Shown: piece after piece, positions 2,496 through 19,441 of the stretch
Position numbering within the stretch: position 1 is the first letter of the stretch
Layout: each line of letters begins with the position of its first letter
From: Candidatus Thorarchaeota archaeon
Lineage (GTDB): Archaea; Asgardarchaeota; Thorarchaeia; Thorarchaeales; Thorarchaeaceae
Length of the DNA: 19,441 nt
Reading direction: 5' to 3'
NCBI GenBank assembly: GCA_048882385.1
Contig: JBHLRQ010000057.1
Coordinates: 1-19,441, forward strand
Notes under the pieces: model-generated
Databases searched by the model: none
What the model was told of the DNA's origin: nothing
The model's input: the letters and a program-made list of their open reading frames with translations, nothing else
Translations under genes and position numbers: made by a program

Positions 2496-2560
2496 TTGTA
2501 GTATAGCAAATTCGACATAGCTACATATTAGCACAGTTTGAAGACATAGAAAATGTGAGT

Positions 2561-3034
2561 ATGCTTATGAGAGAACCGAATACAGATTTTACTCTAGAGG
2601 TAACAGGAACTAGTAGGCGGTGTCCCATTGGAGAGAAAACTGGTGCTCAATATATGTCGGAGAAGAAAACACCTATTCTCGCCTGTGCAGGAGCATGTAT
2701 CCGAGGGGAAATCGCTCGATTAGCCGCGAACATAGTTTCGAAAAACGACGGGTTTCGACATGCATGTCATGGCGAAGTACTCACTGTCCCGGGGTCGGGA
2801 TTTGATAATTGGGTAGCAGCAGCAGACAAAGTCATACTAATCGACGGATGTTTCATGCGATGTTGGGGACGGATTTTAGAAAATCTGATTCCTGAAGAGA
2901 AGTTGGTTCAATTCGATGCTTTATCTCATTATAAGAAGTATACGAATCTATTCGACATTGATGCTGTCCCTGAATCTGAAAGGAATCAAGTAGCACAAAG
3001 TGTGGCTAGTTGGGTACTTGCCAGTATGGAATAG
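2561..3034 (+). CDS. DGC-domain putative zinc-binding protein
   Basis: CAGACIRGEIARLAA, ACHG and IDGCFMRC motifs. The start could be 2555, 2561 or 2567. Confidence 0.85.
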   Translation: MLMREPNTDFTLEVTGTSRRCPIGEKTGAQYMSEKKTPILACAGACIRGEIARLAANIVSKNDGFRHACHGEVLTVPGSGFDNWVAAADKVILIDGCFMRCWGRILENLIPEEKLVQFDALSHYKKYTNLFDIDAVPESERNQVAQSVASWVLASME

Positions 3035-3080: not shown

Positions 3081-3764
3081 TTAATGTGCGCGCCGGAAAA
3101 GCTGGATATATGGTATGAGTGCCGCCACTAACTTTCCTTCCGCTTTCTTCAAATGATCGACAAATGTAGTTCTTGGAACATGCAACCTCTTCGCTATTGT
3201 CTGAACATTCGCTCTTCTTGGAAAACTGAAGTATCCGTGAGAGTACGCGGTGACTAGAGCATCCATTTGCCTATCCGTCAGTTCTGAAAACAAAGTATCT
3301 GCTGTCATCGCTATTGAGCTGATGAACGAACCACTGTACGGTTTCTTCCGTATTATTTCGACATCAAAATGTTCAGTTGCGAGATTCTTCATCAACTTCG
3401 TGATATCTTCATGCTTGAACGCAACTATCCTATAGTATTCCCAACCCTTCTCATAATACACTGGGTTGAATTCGAGGAAGTTCAACTCCTCGAGATAGCG
3501 GCTCACAGATCCAGGTTCTAGACAGGAACATGATTTCGTGACCAAATGTACCCTGTCGCTATCTGATACCTCATTCATGATATTCATGGTTTTCTCCAAA
3601 TCACCCCGAATGCTGGAGTATTCGTCCTGATTCCGAATAACTAACTCTAGGACATCGTGCTCACGATTACACCATTGAAATATCTTCAAAGATGGATGCT
3701 TGCGTGAAATGTTTCCAATTGGACAATCATGACTGACTTTGAATGTGACCTCGAAGAGTGGCAT
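3081..3764 (-). CDS. Bat-type (bacterio-opsin activator, HTH_10) transcription regulator
   Basis: C-terminal LTDRQMDALVTAYSHGYFSFPRRANVQTIAKRLHVPRTTFVDHLKKAEGKL; N-terminal HDCP. Confidence 0.9.
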   Translation of the reverse strand: MPLFEVTFKVSHDCPIGNISRKHPSLKIFQWCNREHDVLELVIRNQDEYSSIRGDLEKTMNIMNEVSDSDRVHLVTKSCSCLEPGSVSRYLEELNFLEFNPVYYEKGWEYYRIVAFKHEDITKLMKNLATEHFDVEIIRKKPYSGSFISSIAMTADTLFSELTDRQMDALVTAYSHGYFSFPRRANVQTIAKRLHVPRTTFVDHLKKAEGKLVAALIPYIQLFRRAH

Positions 3765-5497: not shown

Positions 5498-7429
5498 TTG
5501 ACATATGTCTACATGAAAGCTCTGGAATCAGCTCCAGAACGCTATGACAAAGGAATTAGATGGCTTGGTTGGCTAAAGTTAGATAGTATTCGTAACCATA
5601 TTGCTGACATAATTGAAGCTGAAGCAGAAAATGTACTTGAGATAGGAGCTGGTACTGGCACTCAAGCTCTTCTACTTGCAAAACGGGGTTTAGAAGTTAC
5701 AGGTTTAGACCACTCTTCTGGTATGCTGGCAATTGCTCAAGGAAAGATGGACTCTCTCGAAAAGGAGGAAGGTGAAACAGAGATTGGATCTAGAGTTACA
5801 TTATTGCACAAAGCCGCAGTGGAGCTAGATGAGTTCCCTCATGACTCATTTGATGCGGTCACATCAACACTTGTCCTATCTGAACTTGATCCATCTGAAC
5901 AACGATATGTGCTATCTCATGCGTTTCAGATAATAAAACCTGGAGGCATATTAGTACTAGCTGATGAAGTGATACCACGCCGGGCTTCGACAAGACTGGC
6001 ACATTCGTTGATTTCTGCTCCGCTGAAACTTATCACCTACGTGGTGACTCAGACTTCAACAAAGGCTGTTCGAGATTTAGATAGCATAATTGAGGAAGCA
6101 GGATTCGAAATCGAATCGATTGATAATTATCAGTTAGACTCTTTCCAGCTAATCATTGCAAGAAAACCAAAGGACTCTGATACAGGAGGAGAACCCATCC
6201 CGTCAATTAAGTTCAAACCTATCAAACCCCCATCCGGGGGATTACTTTCCACTTTTTGGGAAACAGCTGCAAGAATGATTGGACATTCTACACAGATTGG
6301 TCTCATCCCTGTGGGTGAACCGACCCCAGATAGCCCCGTACTCTGTACCTGCAATTTCCACTTAACAGTCCGCCGCCTCTATAAACTCTTGAAAACCTCG
6401 AAAATCAACTCCTGGATCCTTGTGGCTCCAACAGATGGCATTAACGTCTGGTGTGCGTCTTGTGGGAAAAACTTCAATGCAGGATCTGTCATTACAGCAA
6501 TCAAAATTTCAAGCCTTGAGAAGTACGTTAACCACCGTAGAATAATACTACCACAACTGGGAGCCTCTGGAATTGACCCAAAGAAAGTAAGTCAGATCAC
6601 AGGATGGCATTGTATCTGGGGTCCAGTGCATATGGAGGACATTCCTAGTTTTCTATCTGATTTCCCAAAATCAGTCCGAAACAAAACAGAGAAGCAGAGA
6701 AAAGTTCGATTTGGTATTGTCAACCGATTGGAGATGGCATCTGCATTATTCTTTCCAATATTGCTGTTATTGATGTTGCCTCTGTCCTTGATTCTCCTTT
6801 TCCTGAATCAAGAGGTTTGGATCATTCCCATACTTTTTACTATGCTGAGCCAGATTTACGGTCTCTTTCTGTTTTGGCCACTAATACCATCTAGATTGGG
6901 CACAAGCAAGACAGCAATCTGGTCATTAGTAATCATTGCTCTGATTTCTTTGGGTTCATGGTATACTACTGATATTCTTGAATTTCCTTATCCAAATGAA
7001 CCATCTTTCCAAGACTTTCTTGCTATTCTCAACTACTGGCCAGTATTGGTTTTTGCGCTCATTCTAATGGCTATCCTCATATATGATGCAGATGGGATGA
7101 CTCCTACACTTCGGTCGTCATTAGCAGCACGAAGTTGGAACAAAGGAAATACAGAGATACAAGAAAGATGGGGGAGTTCCTATTCCCTACTACCCTATGG
7201 AGAGATTTCAGCCATTTTGGATTCATGTAATGGTTGTGGAGTTTGTGTTGATGTTTGTCCTATGTTGATCCCTTCTGTGAATGAAGAAAGCAGAAAGGTC
7301 CAGTTAAGAACACCAGAAAGATGTGTTAATTGTCGAGCCTGTGTAAACCGATGTCCTGAGAACGCTCTATTCCTGAAGCCTGAAACAGAAGCTGCAAAGC
7401 AAGCCCTTCTCAAATTACAACTGAAATGA
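5498..7429 (+). CDS. Fusion of class I SAM methyltransferase, HgcA/CdhD-like corrinoid domain, multi-pass membrane region and 2x[4Fe-4S] ferredoxin (HgcAB-like)
   Basis: VLEIGAGTG SAM motif. Corrinoid-domain motifs PTPDSPVLCTCNFHLT, TDGINVWCASCGK and HRRIILPQLGASG. About 4 hydrophobic helices. Ferredoxin motifs CNGCGVCVDVCP and CVNCRACVNRCP. Confidence 0.85.
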   Translation: MTYVYMKALESAPERYDKGIRWLGWLKLDSIRNHIADIIEAEAENVLEIGAGTGTQALLLAKRGLEVTGLDHSSGMLAIAQGKMDSLEKEEGETEIGSRVTLLHKAAVELDEFPHDSFDAVTSTLVLSELDPSEQRYVLSHAFQIIKPGGILVLADEVIPRRASTRLAHSLISAPLKLITYVVTQTSTKAVRDLDSIIEEAGFEIESIDNYQLDSFQLIIARKPKDSDTGGEPIPSIKFKPIKPPSGGLLSTFWETAARMIGHSTQIGLIPVGEPTPDSPVLCTCNFHLTVRRLYKLLKTSKINSWILVAPTDGINVWCASCGKNFNAGSVITAIKISSLEKYVNHRRIILPQLGASGIDPKKVSQITGWHCIWGPVHMEDIPSFLSDFPKSVRNKTEKQRKVRFGIVNRLEMASALFFPILLLLMLPLSLILLFLNQEVWIIPILFTMLSQIYGLFLFWPLIPSRLGTSKTAIWSLVIIALISLGSWYTTDILEFPYPNEPSFQDFLAILNYWPVLVFALILMAILIYDADGMTPTLRSSLAARSWNKGNTEIQERWGSSYSLLPYGEISAILDSCNGCGVCVDVCPMLIPSVNEESRKVQLRTPERCVNCRACVNRCPENALFLKPETEAAKQALLKLQLK

Positions 7430-7465
7430 ACCAGTTTCTGAAGAAATCATTAGACATCAGCACTT

Positions 7466-7520
7466 GAAGGAGTAGAGGATGACGGGATTTGATGTACAGG
7501 GAATTACGAAACCTTCCTAG
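7466..7520 (+). repeat. Degenerate repeat copy F (left part and hairpin)
   Basis: gaaggagtagaggatgacgggattTGAtgtacagggaa...ttcctag aligns with gaagtaaaggttgacagggtcgggtaatcaggga. Confidence 0.65.
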
Positions 7521-7595
7521 AATCTTAACATGTTCATAGATGACGCCTAACACAAGGATTATATGAACCATGACGAAGATTATTAACAATAGTTA

Positions 7596-8045
7596 ATGGT
7601 TGTGACGAAACCAATGCCAGCACAAATCAGATTTTCTCAGGTTATTGATCGGCCAGTGGCCAAAGTGTTTCACTTCGTAGCTGAACAACACGTTCGCAAC
7701 CACCCACGCTGGGATCCAGACATAGAGCTATGGCTGGAATCAAACAGTCCAATCGGAGTTGGTACAATTATTCGCAGACGCAACAGTCGTAGTGGCACTC
7801 CTGTTGAGGGGACCATGGAGGTGGTGGAATTCAAGCCCAACCAAGTCATGGGAACGCTTATCCGTGATGGCCCAGCCGAGATGCGAGGGCGCATTACGTT
7901 CGAGGTTGTAAATGAGTCCCAAACTAATGTGACAACAGTCATTGATATTCCCGATATGGATGAGTCTATGGACACGAGTTTCATAACAAGCCGCTTGGAG
8001 CGGAGCGGCCGCAATATGAAGCAACTCATCGAGTCTGAAACCTAA
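7596..8045 (+). CDS. SRPBCC (START/polyketide cyclase-like) family protein
   Basis: IDRPVAKVFHFVA...HPRWDP, GVGT and EVVEFKPNQ pattern. Confidence 0.85.
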   Translation: MVVTKPMPAQIRFSQVIDRPVAKVFHFVAEQHVRNHPRWDPDIELWLESNSPIGVGTIIRRRNSRSGTPVEGTMEVVEFKPNQVMGTLIRDGPAEMRGRITFEVVNESQTNVTTVIDIPDMDESMDTSFITSRLERSGRNMKQLIESET

Positions 8046-13553: not shown

Positions 13554-14294
13554 TCAGGTTTCTTCTGAAATGCTTTCCTCAAGAGGGGCCGGATGGCTCC
13601 CTCTCTGTCCGGAAAAATGATGCCATGTATGAAGATGGGGGATAAGTGCCTGGATTATTTTGTTTTCTGCTTTCCGTAAGTGTTCTTGAAAGGTTGTTCT
13701 TCTGACTCCAACACTGTCTGATATAGTCTTGACATCAGCATCTCTGGGTATTCTGTAGTACCCATGAGAATGAGCAGTGAGAACAGCATCTGTCTGCAAT
13801 TCTGTTAAACCTTCAAACAATGTTTCTGTTCGTACTGTCATTGATCCTGACGCTGAGAATCCATTGAATGGGATTTTGCGAAGAATCCATGGCATGTAGC
13901 TGCACTCCCGAAACTCTTCTATCAGCTTGGTGATATCTTGCTGTCTGAAGGCAAGCACTCGGTGATATTCCCATCCCCCGTAGTAACTAACTGGTGCTAG
14001 GTGTAGAATACCAAGCTCAGACGAACAATCTTCAATGACTCTGTCTACTCCGCAAGGAATTGCTTTTGAAATGAGGTGGTTCTGATACTCATCTCCAACA
14101 TGATCAATGACACCATCAAGTGCACTTGCACTTTCTATCATGTCTGGTTTTTCAGTTCCATCTCGAGAAAACACCTCTATAATCTCGTGATTTTTAATAA
14201 TCCACTTGTGGATGCCTGTCAGAGGATATTTCGTTGAGAATTCTGCTAATCTGCAATTGTGCCGTATCTTGAATTCCAGTTCTAATATTGCCAT
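13554..14294 (-). CDS. Bat-type (HTH_10) transcription regulator, paralogue of 3081-3764
   Basis: LTELQTDAVLTAHSHGYYRIPRDADVKTISDSVGVRRTTFQEHLRKAENKI; shares GWEY.R..AF with the paralogue. Confidence 0.9.
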   Translation of the reverse strand: MAILELEFKIRHNCRLAEFSTKYPLTGIHKWIIKNHEIIEVFSRDGTEKPDMIESASALDGVIDHVGDEYQNHLISKAIPCGVDRVIEDCSSELGILHLAPVSYYGGWEYHRVLAFRQQDITKLIEEFRECSYMPWILRKIPFNGFSASGSMTVRTETLFEGLTELQTDAVLTAHSHGYYRIPRDADVKTISDSVGVRRTTFQEHLRKAENKIIQALIPHLHTWHHFSGQRGSHPAPLEESISEET

Positions 14295-14328
14295 GAAATG
14301 ACCCCAGTGAATTACATAATGTATTGAG

Positions 14329-14346
14329 TACTGCCATATGACAGTA
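14329..14346. promoter_or_regulatory. Palindromic operator-like site
   Basis: TACTGCCATATGACAGTA has 8 of 9 palindromic pairs and lies 35 nt upstream of the regulator start. Confidence 0.6.
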
Positions 14347-14409
14347 TCCCCAAAATAACTAATGAAGCAAAGAATACAAGCAAATAGAGCAGATGAACCT
14401 CTAACTGTT

Positions 14410-14478
14410 AAAAGGTTGAAGCCGACGGGATCAGTTAGTCAGAGAGTTTTCTCATCACTCAACCTGTTGAGCATTTTG
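14410..14478 (+). repeat. Degenerate repeat copy J
   Basis: aaaaggttgaagccgacgggatcagtTAGtcagagagttttctcatcactcaacctGTTGAGCatttt. Confidence 0.75.
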
Positions 14479-14484
14479 TAAAGA

Positions 14485-16860
14485 CTAACGCATAGATTTC
14501 TGAAATCTACCAATAATCTCATCTTGAACAGCTTTTCCCAAATCTACATAATATGCACTGTAGCCTGCAACTCTTACAACTAGATTTCTATATGAGTCGG
14601 GATTTGCTTGCGCTTTAAGAAGAATTTCTGGTTCAATGAAGTTGAATTGAATATGCATTCCTCCTAGTTCTACGTAAGAGTTCAGTATTGAGATAAGAGA
14701 TTGCAATCCCTCTTCTCCTTCTGCAAAACCAGGGTCTAATGCGAGTGTGAAAGCCACTCCATTGGGATGGAGTGCAAAATCAACACTTGTGACTGAATTA
14801 AGAACTGCAGTCAAACCCTTTGAAGGAGCTGATATTACAGGAGAAACACCATTACTCAGAGGAGTTGATGGTAATCGCCCACTAGGCAGCGCACCTGTGA
14901 ACAGACCAAACGCTACGTGTGTGGTCACGGAATACATGCCAGAGATGAATGATCCTCCTCTAATGTTCGTGTGTTTTTCTACCTCTTCACTATATATGCG
15001 TGCCACGAGTTTGGCATAGTCGTCCACGAATTTCTCATCATTTCCGTACTTAGGCGCTTTATTTTGTAGTAGTTGTCTGAGTGGCTCATGGTCCTCGAAT
15101 CCATCCCTTAGAGCAGCTATGAGTTCACTCATGCTTACTTTCTTCTCCCTGAAGACGATTTGGTCTATTGCTGCGAGAGAGTCAGCAACATCAGCCAAAC
15201 CAACTCCCTGAACACCGGTGAAGTTGTACCTTGCAGAACCAGTTGTGATATCTTGACCGTTCTCAAAACAGTCCTCTATACAAAGTGAGAGCAGAGGGGT
15301 TGGCATCATCTCCATATTCAACTGTTCAAAAGAGTTAGACCCCTCTGCCATGAGTCCCACCAAATATGAAACTTGTTTTCGAAATGCCTGAATAACGTCA
15401 TCTATTGATTGCCACGTCGTGGGATCTCCTGTGTTTAGCCCAAGTTCTGATCCTAATAACAGAGTTTCGCCGTCATTCAGTGCAAGCTCCAAACACATGG
15501 CGAGGTTGAAGAGTGCCGCATCTGATGATGTGAAACTTGTACCAAACGGGGCTAGCTCCACACACCCAACAGTTGCATAGTTCCTTGCCTCCTCTTTTGG
15601 AATTCCTTGTCTTTCCCATGATTTGACAACTATTTCATCGTTGAAGACTGCAATATTATTCGCACCTGATACAATGACTTCTGCAATCTTTTTCATTAGA
15701 GCTGGCGGACTACTTTGATGAATCCGGACATGGACATTGGGTAGGGGGAGTCCAACATTCTTAGTTGCATCTAGAATCAGATAGGTCATGTCGTTTGTTG
15801 CATCAATTCCCTCTTTATCGATACCCCCAATTGTTACTGCTTGGGTAGTTAATAGTCCTTCAAAATACATTCCTGTGAAGCTATCAAATGCCGGGACATG
15901 CTCATTTGTCTTGATCCAGAGCATTTCAACAAGCTCAAGTGCTTCTTCCCTCGTCAGTGTTCCAGATTCAATATCTTTCTCGTAGAATGGTTGAAGGTAT
16001 TGGTCAATCCTTCCCATTGAGATTGCTTGACCGTCATAGGTTTCGATGGTGAGAGCAAGGTGTGTGAATCTAATGAACTGAATAGCTTCATGAAAGTTCT
16101 TTGGTGGTTTTGCAGGAACTTGTTTACATATCTCAGCAATTCTCTCTAGCTCTTTCTTTCTCTTGATATCGCTCTCTTCCTTGGCCAATATCGCTGCTCT
16201 TTCAGAATATCGATTCGCAAATTGGATTATTGCATTGGCTACAATTCTAGTGGCTTTATAGAAATTAATCTTGGCGAGAACCTCTGTATCTGTTGTTTTG
16301 CTGTATTCTCTAATTCGTTCTTCTGCCAATTTCTTGAATTCTTCAAAACCCATCGAAAAGAGCATCGGGTAGTTTACACTCAAGTGGCCAAAACCAGCGA
16401 TTTCTGTTAGAATAAAAACAGAACCCGCATACAAAGTTTCTAATATTTTTTCAGGAGTTTTCTTATCAGCCTGTGCAATCAAGGATGCATCAGCCCAATA
16501 TGAAGCAATCTCTTCTTGTACAGCTCTGATGTCATCTTGTGTGACTTCTATCACTCGGCAATCTCTTGATTTTAGCTCTTCAAGCTCTGGAACTATTCGT
16601 GAATCATGAGCTTCTGGATAAACCATTGCACCCCGAACCTTGTCCGAAACACTACCTACAACCAGCTCATCGGGGTATATCTTCAAAGAGATGCCCATCA
16701 GTATGTTTGCTAGTGCCTTTGCTTGCCGGATTATTTGAGGTTCACCCTCGGTTGATTTCATTGAATCAGTATGTAATTTAGTCCTTTCAATACTCAAATG
16801 TGTCTTAGATTCAAGAATGCGACTCAGCATTATTTGGCTTCTTGAGGTCACTTCTCTCAC
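14485..16860 (-). CDS. Glycyl radical enzyme, PFL2/glycerol dehydratase-like family
   Basis: Single-Cys loop VGCVE, Gly loop LVVRVAGYSAY, and motifs SMGRIDQYL, PKYGND and HIQFN. Confidence 0.92.
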   Translation of the reverse strand: MREVTSRSQIMLSRILESKTHLSIERTKLHTDSMKSTEGEPQIIRQAKALANILMGISLKIYPDELVVGSVSDKVRGAMVYPEAHDSRIVPELEELKSRDCRVIEVTQDDIRAVQEEIASYWADASLIAQADKKTPEKILETLYAGSVFILTEIAGFGHLSVNYPMLFSMGFEEFKKLAEERIREYSKTTDTEVLAKINFYKATRIVANAIIQFANRYSERAAILAKEESDIKRKKELERIAEICKQVPAKPPKNFHEAIQFIRFTHLALTIETYDGQAISMGRIDQYLQPFYEKDIESGTLTREEALELVEMLWIKTNEHVPAFDSFTGMYFEGLLTTQAVTIGGIDKEGIDATNDMTYLILDATKNVGLPLPNVHVRIHQSSPPALMKKIAEVIVSGANNIAVFNDEIVVKSWERQGIPKEEARNYATVGCVELAPFGTSFTSSDAALFNLAMCLELALNDGETLLLGSELGLNTGDPTTWQSIDDVIQAFRKQVSYLVGLMAEGSNSFEQLNMEMMPTPLLSLCIEDCFENGQDITTGSARYNFTGVQGVGLADVADSLAAIDQIVFREKKVSMSELIAALRDGFEDHEPLRQLLQNKAPKYGNDEKFVDDYAKLVARIYSEEVEKHTNIRGGSFISGMYSVTTHVAFGLFTGALPSGRLPSTPLSNGVSPVISAPSKGLTAVLNSVTSVDFALHPNGVAFTLALDPGFAEGEEGLQSLISILNSYVELGGMHIQFNFIEPEILLKAQANPDSYRNLVVRVAGYSAYYVDLGKAVQDEIIGRFQKSMR

Positions 16861-18733: not shown

Positions 18734-19441
18734 TTAGGAATCTAGAACTTCATCCATAGCACCAGTTCGGTATCCAAAAGCATCAAGAGTTACATACTTG
18801 AATCCTGCTTTCTTGGCTAGTTCGTGCAACTCATCAAGTTTGTCTTCATCAAACAACTTCTCTCTCTCTTCTCGTCCGACCTCTATTCGTACAAGGTTTC
18901 CGTGGAATCTTGCACGAACACATGCGATACCAAACAGCTCCTTGACCTCTCTTTCCACCGCATCAATCATTCTTACACGGTCCTCAGTGATTTCAGTGCC
19001 ATATGGAAATCTGCTAGAGAGACAAGCCATAGACGGTCTGTCCGCAATTGATAGTCCCACCTCTCTTGCATAAGCTCTGATTTCTTCCTTTGTTATTCCT
19101 GCATCAAGAAATGGCGATACGACTCCTGCCTCCTCAAGAGCCTTTACTCCAGGTCGATGTCCTTCCATTTCACTGGCATTAGTACCATCTACAACCAAAT
19201 CCATGTTGTTTTCTTTTGCAGACTTTAGCCATACAGCTGCCAGCTCCTTCTTGCAATGATAACATCGATTAACAGGATTCCTAGTCAAGTTCTCGTTCGA
19301 TAGTTCGTCAACCTGAAGGATTTCTAGATCCACCTCTAATTCTCTTGCAACCTCTTCTGCAGCCTGCAATTCTGATCGGGGAAAGGTAATACTGTCGATG
19401 GTAAGCAATTTCGACTCAGCTGCGCTCTCTTTGGCAAGATG
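18734..19441 (-). CDS. larE: ATP-dependent sacrificial sulfur transferase LarE family, 5' end outside the window
   Basis: NRCYHCK, DGTN, RPG, PSMACLSSRFPYG, VRIEV and GFKYVTLD..GYRTG. The frame is open to the window edge. Confidence 0.92.
   Translation of the reverse strand, partial: HLAKESAAESKLLTIDSITFPRSELQAAEEVARELEVDLEILQVDELSNENLTRNPVNRCYHCKKELAAVWLKSAKENNMDLVVDGTNASEMEGHRPGVKALEEAGVVSPFLDAGITKEEIRAYAREVGLSIADRPSMACLSSRFPYGTEITEDRVRMIDAVEREVKELFGIACVRARFHGNLVRIEVGREEREKLFDEDKLDELHELAKKAGFKYVTLDAFGYRTGAMDEVLDS

Follow-up and report, generated by a model that had tools for sequence, protein, structure and literature searches.

A Candidatus Thorarchaeota gene fusing the methyltransferase CpaM to an HgcAB-like corrinoid and ferredoxin protein

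Among the closest described counterparts of the gene considered here, a fusion of a methyltransferase, a corrinoid domain and a ferredoxin on a 19 441 nt stretch of Candidatus Thorarchaeota DNA (assembly GCA_048882385.1, contig JBHLRQ010000057.1, positions 1–19 441; hereafter the window), are the mercury methylase HgcA and its ferredoxin partner HgcB. Mercury methylation by Asgard archaea is reportedly the subject of a 2023 paper in the ISME Journal, and we take PF0729 of P. furiosus to be a fused HgcAB. With purified HgcAB, S-adenosylmethionine (SAM) yields a methyl-Co-thiolate without an extra methyltransferase, in keeping with the preliminary description of this locus, which had named SAM as the reported HgcAB methyl donor; residues C73, C94 and C95 of HgcB matter (PMC11588087). 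HgcA is further marked by a CU motif, and HgcB by a ninth Cys and a terminal CC (bioRxiv 2022.07.06.499078), whilst acr3, arsR and arsM are found beside canonical hgcAB (PMC7438021) and HgcAB has been reported to dechlorinate CCl4 (bioRxiv 2026.04.26.720869). Thor- and Lokiarchaeota sequences form a clade among the fused HgcAB proteins (Lin et al., bioRxiv 2022.11.21.517362), and the accessible part of that preprint makes no mention of a methyltransferase fusion. In line with the preliminary description, neither of the tested organisms carrying fused hgcAB, P. furiosus and M. methylutens, produced methylmercury (PMC5893877, PMC10087281); PF0729 appears among copper-induced antioxidant genes (PMC7830388). 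A similar two-step logic, in which the methyl group of SAM goes first to cob(I)alamin and then to an organic acceptor, is known from the SAM:estrogen methyltransferase EmtABCD, which consists of unrelated proteins and whose gene cluster, as far as described in the accessible text, is without a class I methyltransferase or an HgcA-type domain (PMC7448270).

Architecture and integrity of the fused gene

The gene occupies a single frame that is open throughout, with no internal stop codon, and begins with TTG. This start is favoured over the ATG at 5513 because the N-termini of homologs share a YVYMK stretch, five residues ahead of an invariant Met6. The features of the gene are as follows.

5498..7429, + strand: whole gene, a 643 aa ORF comprising CpaM, corrinoid domain, membrane segment and 2[4Fe-4S] ferredoxin
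5501..6166, + strand: CpaM class I SAM methyltransferase domain, UbiE/MenG-like (aa 2–223; NF043040)
5633..5659, + strand: SAM-binding motif I, VLEIGAGTG (aa 46–54)
5879..5884, + strand: Ser128-Glu129 ('SEL') family signature, probably on the acceptor side of the methyltransferase, judging from the fold
6167..6247, + strand: Pro-rich linker (aa 224–250), of low model confidence
6248..6712, + strand: predicted corrinoid-binding domain (aa 251–405), homologous to HgcA and to the C-terminal domain of the large subunit of the corrinoid iron-sulfur protein (CFeSP)
6443..6469, + strand: cap helix NVWCASCGK, with Cys319 at 6452–6454 and Cys322 at 6461–6463
6716..7099, + strand: four predicted membrane helices (model helices aa 407–435, 439–458, 468–493 and 514–534)
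7085–7105, + strand: conserved D-x-x-G-x-T motif, DADGMTP, closing the membrane segment
7226..7261, + strand: first CxxCxxCxxxCP motif (CNGCGVCVDVCP; aa 577–588)
7322..7357, + strand: second CxxCxxCxxxCP motif (CVNCRACVNRCP; aa 609–620), with CVNCRA and not the C(M/I)ECGA form of HgcB
7358..7426, + strand: C-terminal helix without Cys, 23 residues after the last cluster

Pfam, NCBIfam and the structural model bear out the preliminary reading of one ORF with a class I methyltransferase, a corrinoid domain, transmembrane helices and two CxxCxxCxxxCP motifs; the Pfam matches comprise a class I methyltransferase at aa 46–154, a CdhD-family domain at 268–385 and 4Fe-4S motifs at 573–624. The resemblance of the N-terminal domain to CpaM, suggested in the preliminary description, was verified by the CpaM model NF043040, which scored 243.4 bits against a cut-off of 180 over aa 2–223, and the HgcAB-like fusion protein model NF043039 scored 358.5 bits against 285 over aa 251–624. 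The ORF fell below the cut-offs for HgcA (NF040863, 143.2 versus 275 bits), HgcB (NF040864, 42 versus 99 bits), UbiE/MenG (TIGR01934, 42.9 versus 158.35 bits, E = 3 × 10−11) and the arsenite methyltransferase ArsM (NF008823, 31.2 versus 263 bits); moreover, the As-binding Cys of ArsM are missing, with no Cys in aa 1–282. Residues G50, G52, T53 and D71 of the methyltransferase are invariant in all 55 aligned homologs, and E129 is invariant in both alignments (A1, 55 rows; A2, 60 rows) and retained in divergent Asgard forms. The Pro-rich linker that follows is the point at which the gene is split in unfused relatives. The corrinoid domain matched PF03599 (E = 6 × 10−16) and the CFeSP structures 2h9a, 4c1n and 4djd (E = 6 × 10−12 to 1 × 10−11; 6 × 10−12 for 2h9a); in contrast with the window protein, the CFeSP large subunit (CdhE/AcsC) is soluble, has a cap-helix Thr and receives its methyl group from methyl-tetrahydrofolate or -methanopterin. 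At the other end of the chain, the HgcB-type ninth Cys and terminal CC are absent, and the earlier remark that the HgcB Cys tail is lacking was correct, there being no Cys beyond the last cluster. Some HgcAB-like proteins with an unfused CpaM (L024–L028) do end in a CC pair (e.g. KRDCC), so the Cys tail is not confined to HgcB. A promoter and terminator scan of the window with bacterial consensus sequences gave counts at chance level (5 versus 5.4 and 2 versus 1.9, respectively).

A protein search scored 8000 candidates, of which 478 were matched at E up to 0.001 and the best 120 of these listed. Setting aside the window's own entry, at least 30 full-length homologs from several sources cover 98–100 % of the query at 53–93 % identity; the closest among the matches listed (93 % identity) is labelled Candidatus Thorarchaeota. 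Named full-length homologs belong to Thor-, Prometheo-, Hel- and Hodarchaeota, and several are labelled 'HgcAB-like fusion protein' in GenBank. A scan of genome contigs with the single protein as query returned only two true relatives. A contig from another study covers 5753–7600, including both domain junctions, with four differences and no gap, and no indels or joints were found among the four sequence runs compared with the window. As the two genes are unfused in 25 of the 30 top Asgard loci, one could suspect that the assembly has joined them wrongly, or that neighbouring genes were read through in this single case; given the full-length homologs from several sources, the contig that crosses both junctions and the 100/100 support for the fused clade, we rejected the artefact and regard either possibility as negligible. 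The preliminary description had itself named an assembly artefact as grounds for refutation; the fusion is real.

An AlphaFold2 model of the whole chain, built on a 55-row alignment, has a pLDDT of 87.6 and a pTM of 0.86 and falls below a pLDDT of 50 only at the first residues and at linker residues 230–233; the high pTM suggests a defined domain arrangement. The Foldseek matches listed all have the methyltransferase fold and extend over less than a third of the model (TMq up to 0.29), the best being class I methyltransferases with Coq5 second, and none of the solved relatives has the whole three-part architecture. A hydrophobic helix after the D/N-x-x-G-x-T/S motif is present in eight of 99 rows with a fused ferredoxin versus 30 of 32 with a separate one, and thus ferredoxin fusion accompanies loss of the fifth helix. 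Four membrane helices would keep both cofactors, those of the ferredoxin and the corrinoid domain, on one face of the membrane.

Separation from HgcA and pairing with CpaM

The cap-helix motif NVWCASCGK lies at 6443–6469, exactly as first placed, and the Cys expected to bind cobalt is retained as Cys319, the predicted ligand, in all 278 matched cap motifs (282 rows, four without a motif match, one of them CdhE). In solved CFeSP large subunits, the cap helices of which are of equal length, Cys319 aligns with the cap-helix Thr. The second Cys is indeed present as Cys322, but it is not an addition as had been proposed: in register with the HgcA motif NVWCAAGKG it takes the place of Gly, with Gly323 in place of Lys, and because the two motifs are out of register the likeness of the window's 'GK' to that of HgcA is coincidental. 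The importance given to this residue found no support, as it is variable, occurring in 43 of the 278 cap motifs, being shared by 20 of 31 close homologs of full length (the others have V in five cases, E in three and A in three) and changing five times on a tree of 105 rows; we therefore rejected it as a functional novelty. Cys283, Cys285 and Cys372 (window 6344–6352 and 6611–6613), constant in 27 of 27 aligned clade rows, are more constant than Cys322. The high-stringency HgcA cap motif N(V/I)WC(A/S)(A/G/S)GK is not matched by the window's NVWCASCG, and the N-terminal CU/CC motif of HgcA is absent, the first Cys being residue 283 and the frame containing no UGA.

A careful tree of 53 rows, hand-picked out of 282, and 298 columns (LG+G4, five CdhE outgroups) included HgcA from eight Acidobacteriota loci and one Asgard locus, without published reference sequences. 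Canonical HgcA formed a 100/100 clade, and the window's own 100/100 group fell within a separate 100/98 clade of 25 rows. Union of the window group with HgcA was rejected in this tree (p-AU 0.007) but not in a quick tree of 107 rows (p-AU 0.153). The base of the tree is a polytomy of six lineages, all of which except canonical HgcA have a CpaM-like partner; a topology with HgcA branching as sister to the CpaM-bearing lineages together was recovered in eight of 1000 bootstrap trees and was not rejected (p-AU 0.39). The tree suggests loss of CpaM in the HgcA lineage. The profile search and phylogeny are checks that the preliminary description had called for; with the NF043039 and CpaM cut-offs passed, those for HgcA and HgcB failed and the clade separate from HgcA, the window protein belongs to the HgcAB-like family and to CpaM and not to HgcA/HgcB.

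Set beside NF043039 proteins, the window chain has the same corrinoid domain, membrane segment and 2[4Fe-4S] ferredoxin in one chain and differs in adding an N-terminal CpaM; its clade also has Cys283, Cys285 and Cys372 and a longer pre-ferredoxin loop. CpaM (NF043040, a hypothetical equivalog) shares the N-terminal 223 residues and the upstream position, but is a separate gene where the window has a fusion. With HgcA and HgcB the window protein has in common a homologous corrinoid domain, the cap-helix Cys, a membrane anchor, two clusters and SAM as the likely donor, whereas NVWCAAGK, the fifth helix, the N-terminal CU/CC, the ninth Cys and the terminal CC belong to HgcA and HgcB only, and HgcAB forms a separate clade and is methylated by SAM without CpaM.

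Across 301 Asgard genomes an HgcA-like corrinoid match was present in 138, and the NF043039 cut-off was passed in 58. The 30 best Asgard loci were selected on the corrinoid model only, blind to the methyltransferase; four of them have a fused CpaM, 25 have CpaM directly upstream and one shows none, such that 29 of 30 were paired. In 401 Acidobacteriota genomes, by comparison, no CpaM-like gene lay within 1.5 kb of canonical hgcA at any of the 20 loci passing the HgcA cut-off, where only ∼1.5 kb of flank was available. Of ten Acidobacteriota corrinoid loci below this cut-off that were examined, seven had CpaM directly upstream, one was without CpaM, one begins at a contig end and one is a divergent HgcA/HgcB pair. 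Conversely, all eight above-cut-off CpaM genes in these genomes adjoin a corrinoid match, whilst a single weaker CpaM match has no adjoining corrinoid partner; in the one Acidobacteriota genome with both systems, CpaM sits by the second, HgcAB-like gene. CpaM and this corrinoid family form a mutually obligate, repeatedly fused pair.

Among 80 metagenome loci (the best 80 of 564, picked by means of an alignment of the whole chain) and another 20 Asgard loci picked by frame length, we found all three modules fused, the methyltransferase and corrinoid modules fused with a separate ferredoxin, a separate methyltransferase before a corrinoid–ferredoxin fusion, and three separate genes; in every layout the order was methyltransferase, corrinoid–membrane protein and ferredoxin. 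The change between fused and adjacent CpaM occurred six times on a tree of 89 rows and ferredoxin fusion once on a tree of 98 rows. Distances in the partner trees correlate (r = 0.76 for 89 rows, r = 0.82 for 38 unfused pairs), and the CpaM and corrinoid trees share 45 of 86 splits. No conserved fourth gene was found, no neighbour recurring in more than five of 21 wide-flank Asgard loci. In deep-branching Asgard loci (L130–L136, L144 and L145) the methyltransferase, corrinoid–membrane protein and ferredoxin are three genes, with cap motifs NVWCGSRGG and NVWCSAAGG, and some of these appear to lie between heterodisulfide-reductase-like genes. At another locus (L092:4445-7902) a radical SAM gene with a CUAEP/CCAEP tail (615 bits against a cut-off of 500) lies directly upstream of a three-part fusion.

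A candidate methyl relay and its alternatives

The architecture, the unbroken motifs for SAM, cap helix and clusters, the pairing of CpaM with this corrinoid family and the distance from canonical HgcA are shown by the comparisons above, and on them we place a reading that we consider reasonably probable: the window chain would act as a membrane relay passing a methyl group from SAM to a cobamide and on to an acceptor. In such a relay the ferredoxin module would reduce the bound cobamide to Co(I), CpaM would transfer the methyl group of SAM onto Co(I), and the Cys319-ligated methyl-cobalt would hand it to an acceptor delivered through the membrane, probably not mercury given the separate clade and the missing HgcA/HgcB Cys motifs. 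Cobamide binding is predicted from homology of the corrinoid domain, Co–S ligation and the cycle of reduction, methylation and transfer may be supposed by analogy with purified HgcAB (PMC11588087), and gene pairing and fusion point to CpaM as the probable loading enzyme. The self-contained relay put forward in the preliminary description fits the pairing, the fusions, the want of a fourth gene and the confident model, and stays an interpretation. As for the acceptor, a toxic or lipophilic organic molecule is tentatively preferred, at somewhat less than an even chance, since TetR, F420-dependent oxidoreductase, ABC exporter, HpnN-like and acyl-CoA ligase genes are found as neighbours; a non-Hg metal(loid) is doubtful, some other acceptor unlikely, and Hg as the main substrate very unlikely.

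Several observations weigh against the relay. SAM methylates purified canonical HgcAB with no separate methyltransferase present (KD 33 μM; PMC11588087), which means that this fold does not need a loading enzyme and that CpaM may do another job. The congruence of the partner trees is weak evidence, since adjacency alone can cause shared history, and selecting the 80 metagenome loci with a full-length query favours those bearing a methyltransferase; the metagenome loci with TetR/DDN neighbours are mostly related to one another. No CobS match was found in the host genome (95.3 % complete), which would mean that the cobamide is salvaged or that the CobS gene is unassembled, and a search of the literature turned up no biochemical assay on a CpaM or an HgcAB-like protein. 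Finally, covariation over 237 pairs (effective number 141) ranked E134–K336, which would link the methyltransferase to the corrinoid domain, second overall, with L130–I335 and Q217–K336 close by; both residues are, however, simply conserved (acid/base in 202 of 237, no charge swaps), and a basic residue at the K336 position also occurs in two CdhE outgroups, leaving the pair as only a hint of an inter-module contact.

CpaM might instead methylate an organic, quinone-like or lipid substrate directly, leaving the corrinoid–ferredoxin part to act on that membrane substrate in a separate step, e.g. by reducing or dehalogenating it. Its resemblance to UbiE/MenG (TIGR01934, E = 3 × 10−11; Coq5 as second Foldseek match), the PF01209 domain carried by its Atlas neighbours and the lipid- and TetR-type neighbours in bacterial loci speak for this, as do the independence of HgcAB from any separate methyltransferase and its reported dechlorination of CCl4 (preprint 10.64898/2026.04.26.720869). 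We nevertheless hold direct methylation to be unlikely, as CpaM is far under the UbiE/MenG cut-off (43 of 158 bits) and never alone (8/8 adjoin a corrinoid match in Acidobacteriota), and other pathway genes, expected beside a direct enzyme, do not recur. CpaM could also serve only to reactivate oxidised Co(II) by SAM-driven reductive methylation, with turnover drawing on another methyl donor or on non-methyl chemistry. The C-terminal domain of methionine synthase restores oxidised Co(II) in just this way, and, as known for MetH, the combination of a ferredoxin and a SAM site is the usual reactivation pairing. Reactivation by SAM is also mentioned in the literature (PMC7448270); on the other hand, neither a fused nor a conserved neighbouring module offers a second methyl donor, and SAM is the stoichiometric donor in HgcAB (PMC11588087), making a purely reactivating role quite unlikely.

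The remaining alternative is a self-contained mercury methylase, namely HgcAB with its own SAM-loading domain. In its favour, the chain keeps the Cys of the cap helix, the membrane segment and both clusters, SAM is the HgcAB donor (PMC11588087) and a MerB-like gene lies at 3–752 of the window. Against it, the HgcA and HgcB cut-offs are failed, none of the six cap motifs of high stringency is present, C(M/I)ECGA is missing (criteria of PMC10087281), and so are the HgcB ninth Cys, the terminal CC and the N-terminal CU/CC. Furthermore, the 100/98 clade stands apart from HgcA (p-AU for union 0.007 with 53 rows, 0.153 with 107), neither organism with fused hgcAB that has been tested formed methylmercury (PMC5893877, PMC10087281) and the MerB-like gene is found at none of 208 other loci. 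A mercury methylase is on this evidence most improbable, and the SAM-to-cobamide relay remains the reading that we favour.

Genomic setting and significance

The features of the window outside the fused gene are as follows.

3–752, − strand: MerB-like (alkylmercury lyase family) gene, 48.3 bits against a cut-off of 27, running off the window end
2555–3034, + strand: protein with a DGC domain (putatively metal-binding); the closest relative has it upstream of the fusion too
3081–3764, − strand: second HTH_10 regulator
13554–16860, − strand: glycyl radical enzyme (PFL-like, 791 aa), then an HTH_10 regulator
18734–19441, − strand: ORF with a CLSSRFPYG motif, no Pfam match at 1 × 10−5

The CLSSRFPYG motif is one that we take to resemble LarE-type sulfur transferases. 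The MerB-like gene is 4.7 kb upstream of the fusion, and a second one is present on another contig of the genome (C143). Of 301 Asgard genomes, 23 have MerB-like matches, and among the matches listed none in the other genomes was seen by eye near a corrinoid match, in a comparison that left out 32 corrinoid matches. Having no counterpart at the 208 other loci and being peculiar to this genome, the MerB-like gene at 3–752 was rejected as a partner of the fusion. Genes for CdhD/E are present at another place in the host genome. At a distance of up to 3 kb from the corrinoid domain, TetR genes occur at 15 of 80 metagenome loci and F420-dependent oxidoreductase genes at seven of 80, and ABC exporter, HpnN-like and acyl-CoA ligase genes are found beside some loci. 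ACR3 lies within the same distance at one of 21 wide-flank Asgard loci, and the metal(loid) substrate considered in the preliminary description accordingly has little support for the window clade.

The same genome encodes a paralog (G000:C87:3439-5525; L002, L004) in which a 583 aa CpaM-like methyltransferase is fused to an HgcA-like domain, with the cap motif NVWCAARGK and 191 of 275 bits in the HgcA model; a separate ferredoxin follows, which contains GCGC and ends, in the manner of HgcB, in SCCG. In this class ArsR lies within 3 kb at four of 11 loci and ACR3 at three of 11, and the C87 paralog is a better candidate for a metal(loid) methylase than the window gene. At an Asgard locus with canonical hgcA (436 bits) and hgcB (108 bits) and no CpaM (L146; G025:C110:735-3716), an ArsM-like gene lies two genes upstream of the pair.

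With regard to novelty, no paper on CpaM or on the three-part fusion was found, in a search outside which lay most subscription papers and all supplements. The architecture is nonetheless less new than first thought, as NCBIfam names both halves and GenBank labels homologs; the NCBI catalogue already includes both halves and their pairing, and many Asgard genomes carry the fused form. In its widest form, which we offer as speculation and think rather doubtful, the CpaM–corrinoid–ferredoxin relay would be the ancestral type within an entire class of membrane B12 methylases, widespread in Asgard archaea (an HgcA-like gene in 138 of 301 genomes), from which HgcAB was derived by loss of CpaM; the window chain would be its simplest complete version, and the C87 paralog, relatives of which often have arsR or acr3 beside them, an unrecognised SAM-loaded metal(loid) methylase of sediments. 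The fusion touches on two questions, the function of 'fused HgcAB' proteins and the evolutionary purpose of HgcAB, and would identify CpaM as the missing partner, tied to SAM as the HgcAB methyl donor. With all parts in one expressible chain, cobamide loading and screens for acceptors become directly approachable, and in metagenome surveys CpaM–HgcAB-like genes should not be scored as mercury methylators.

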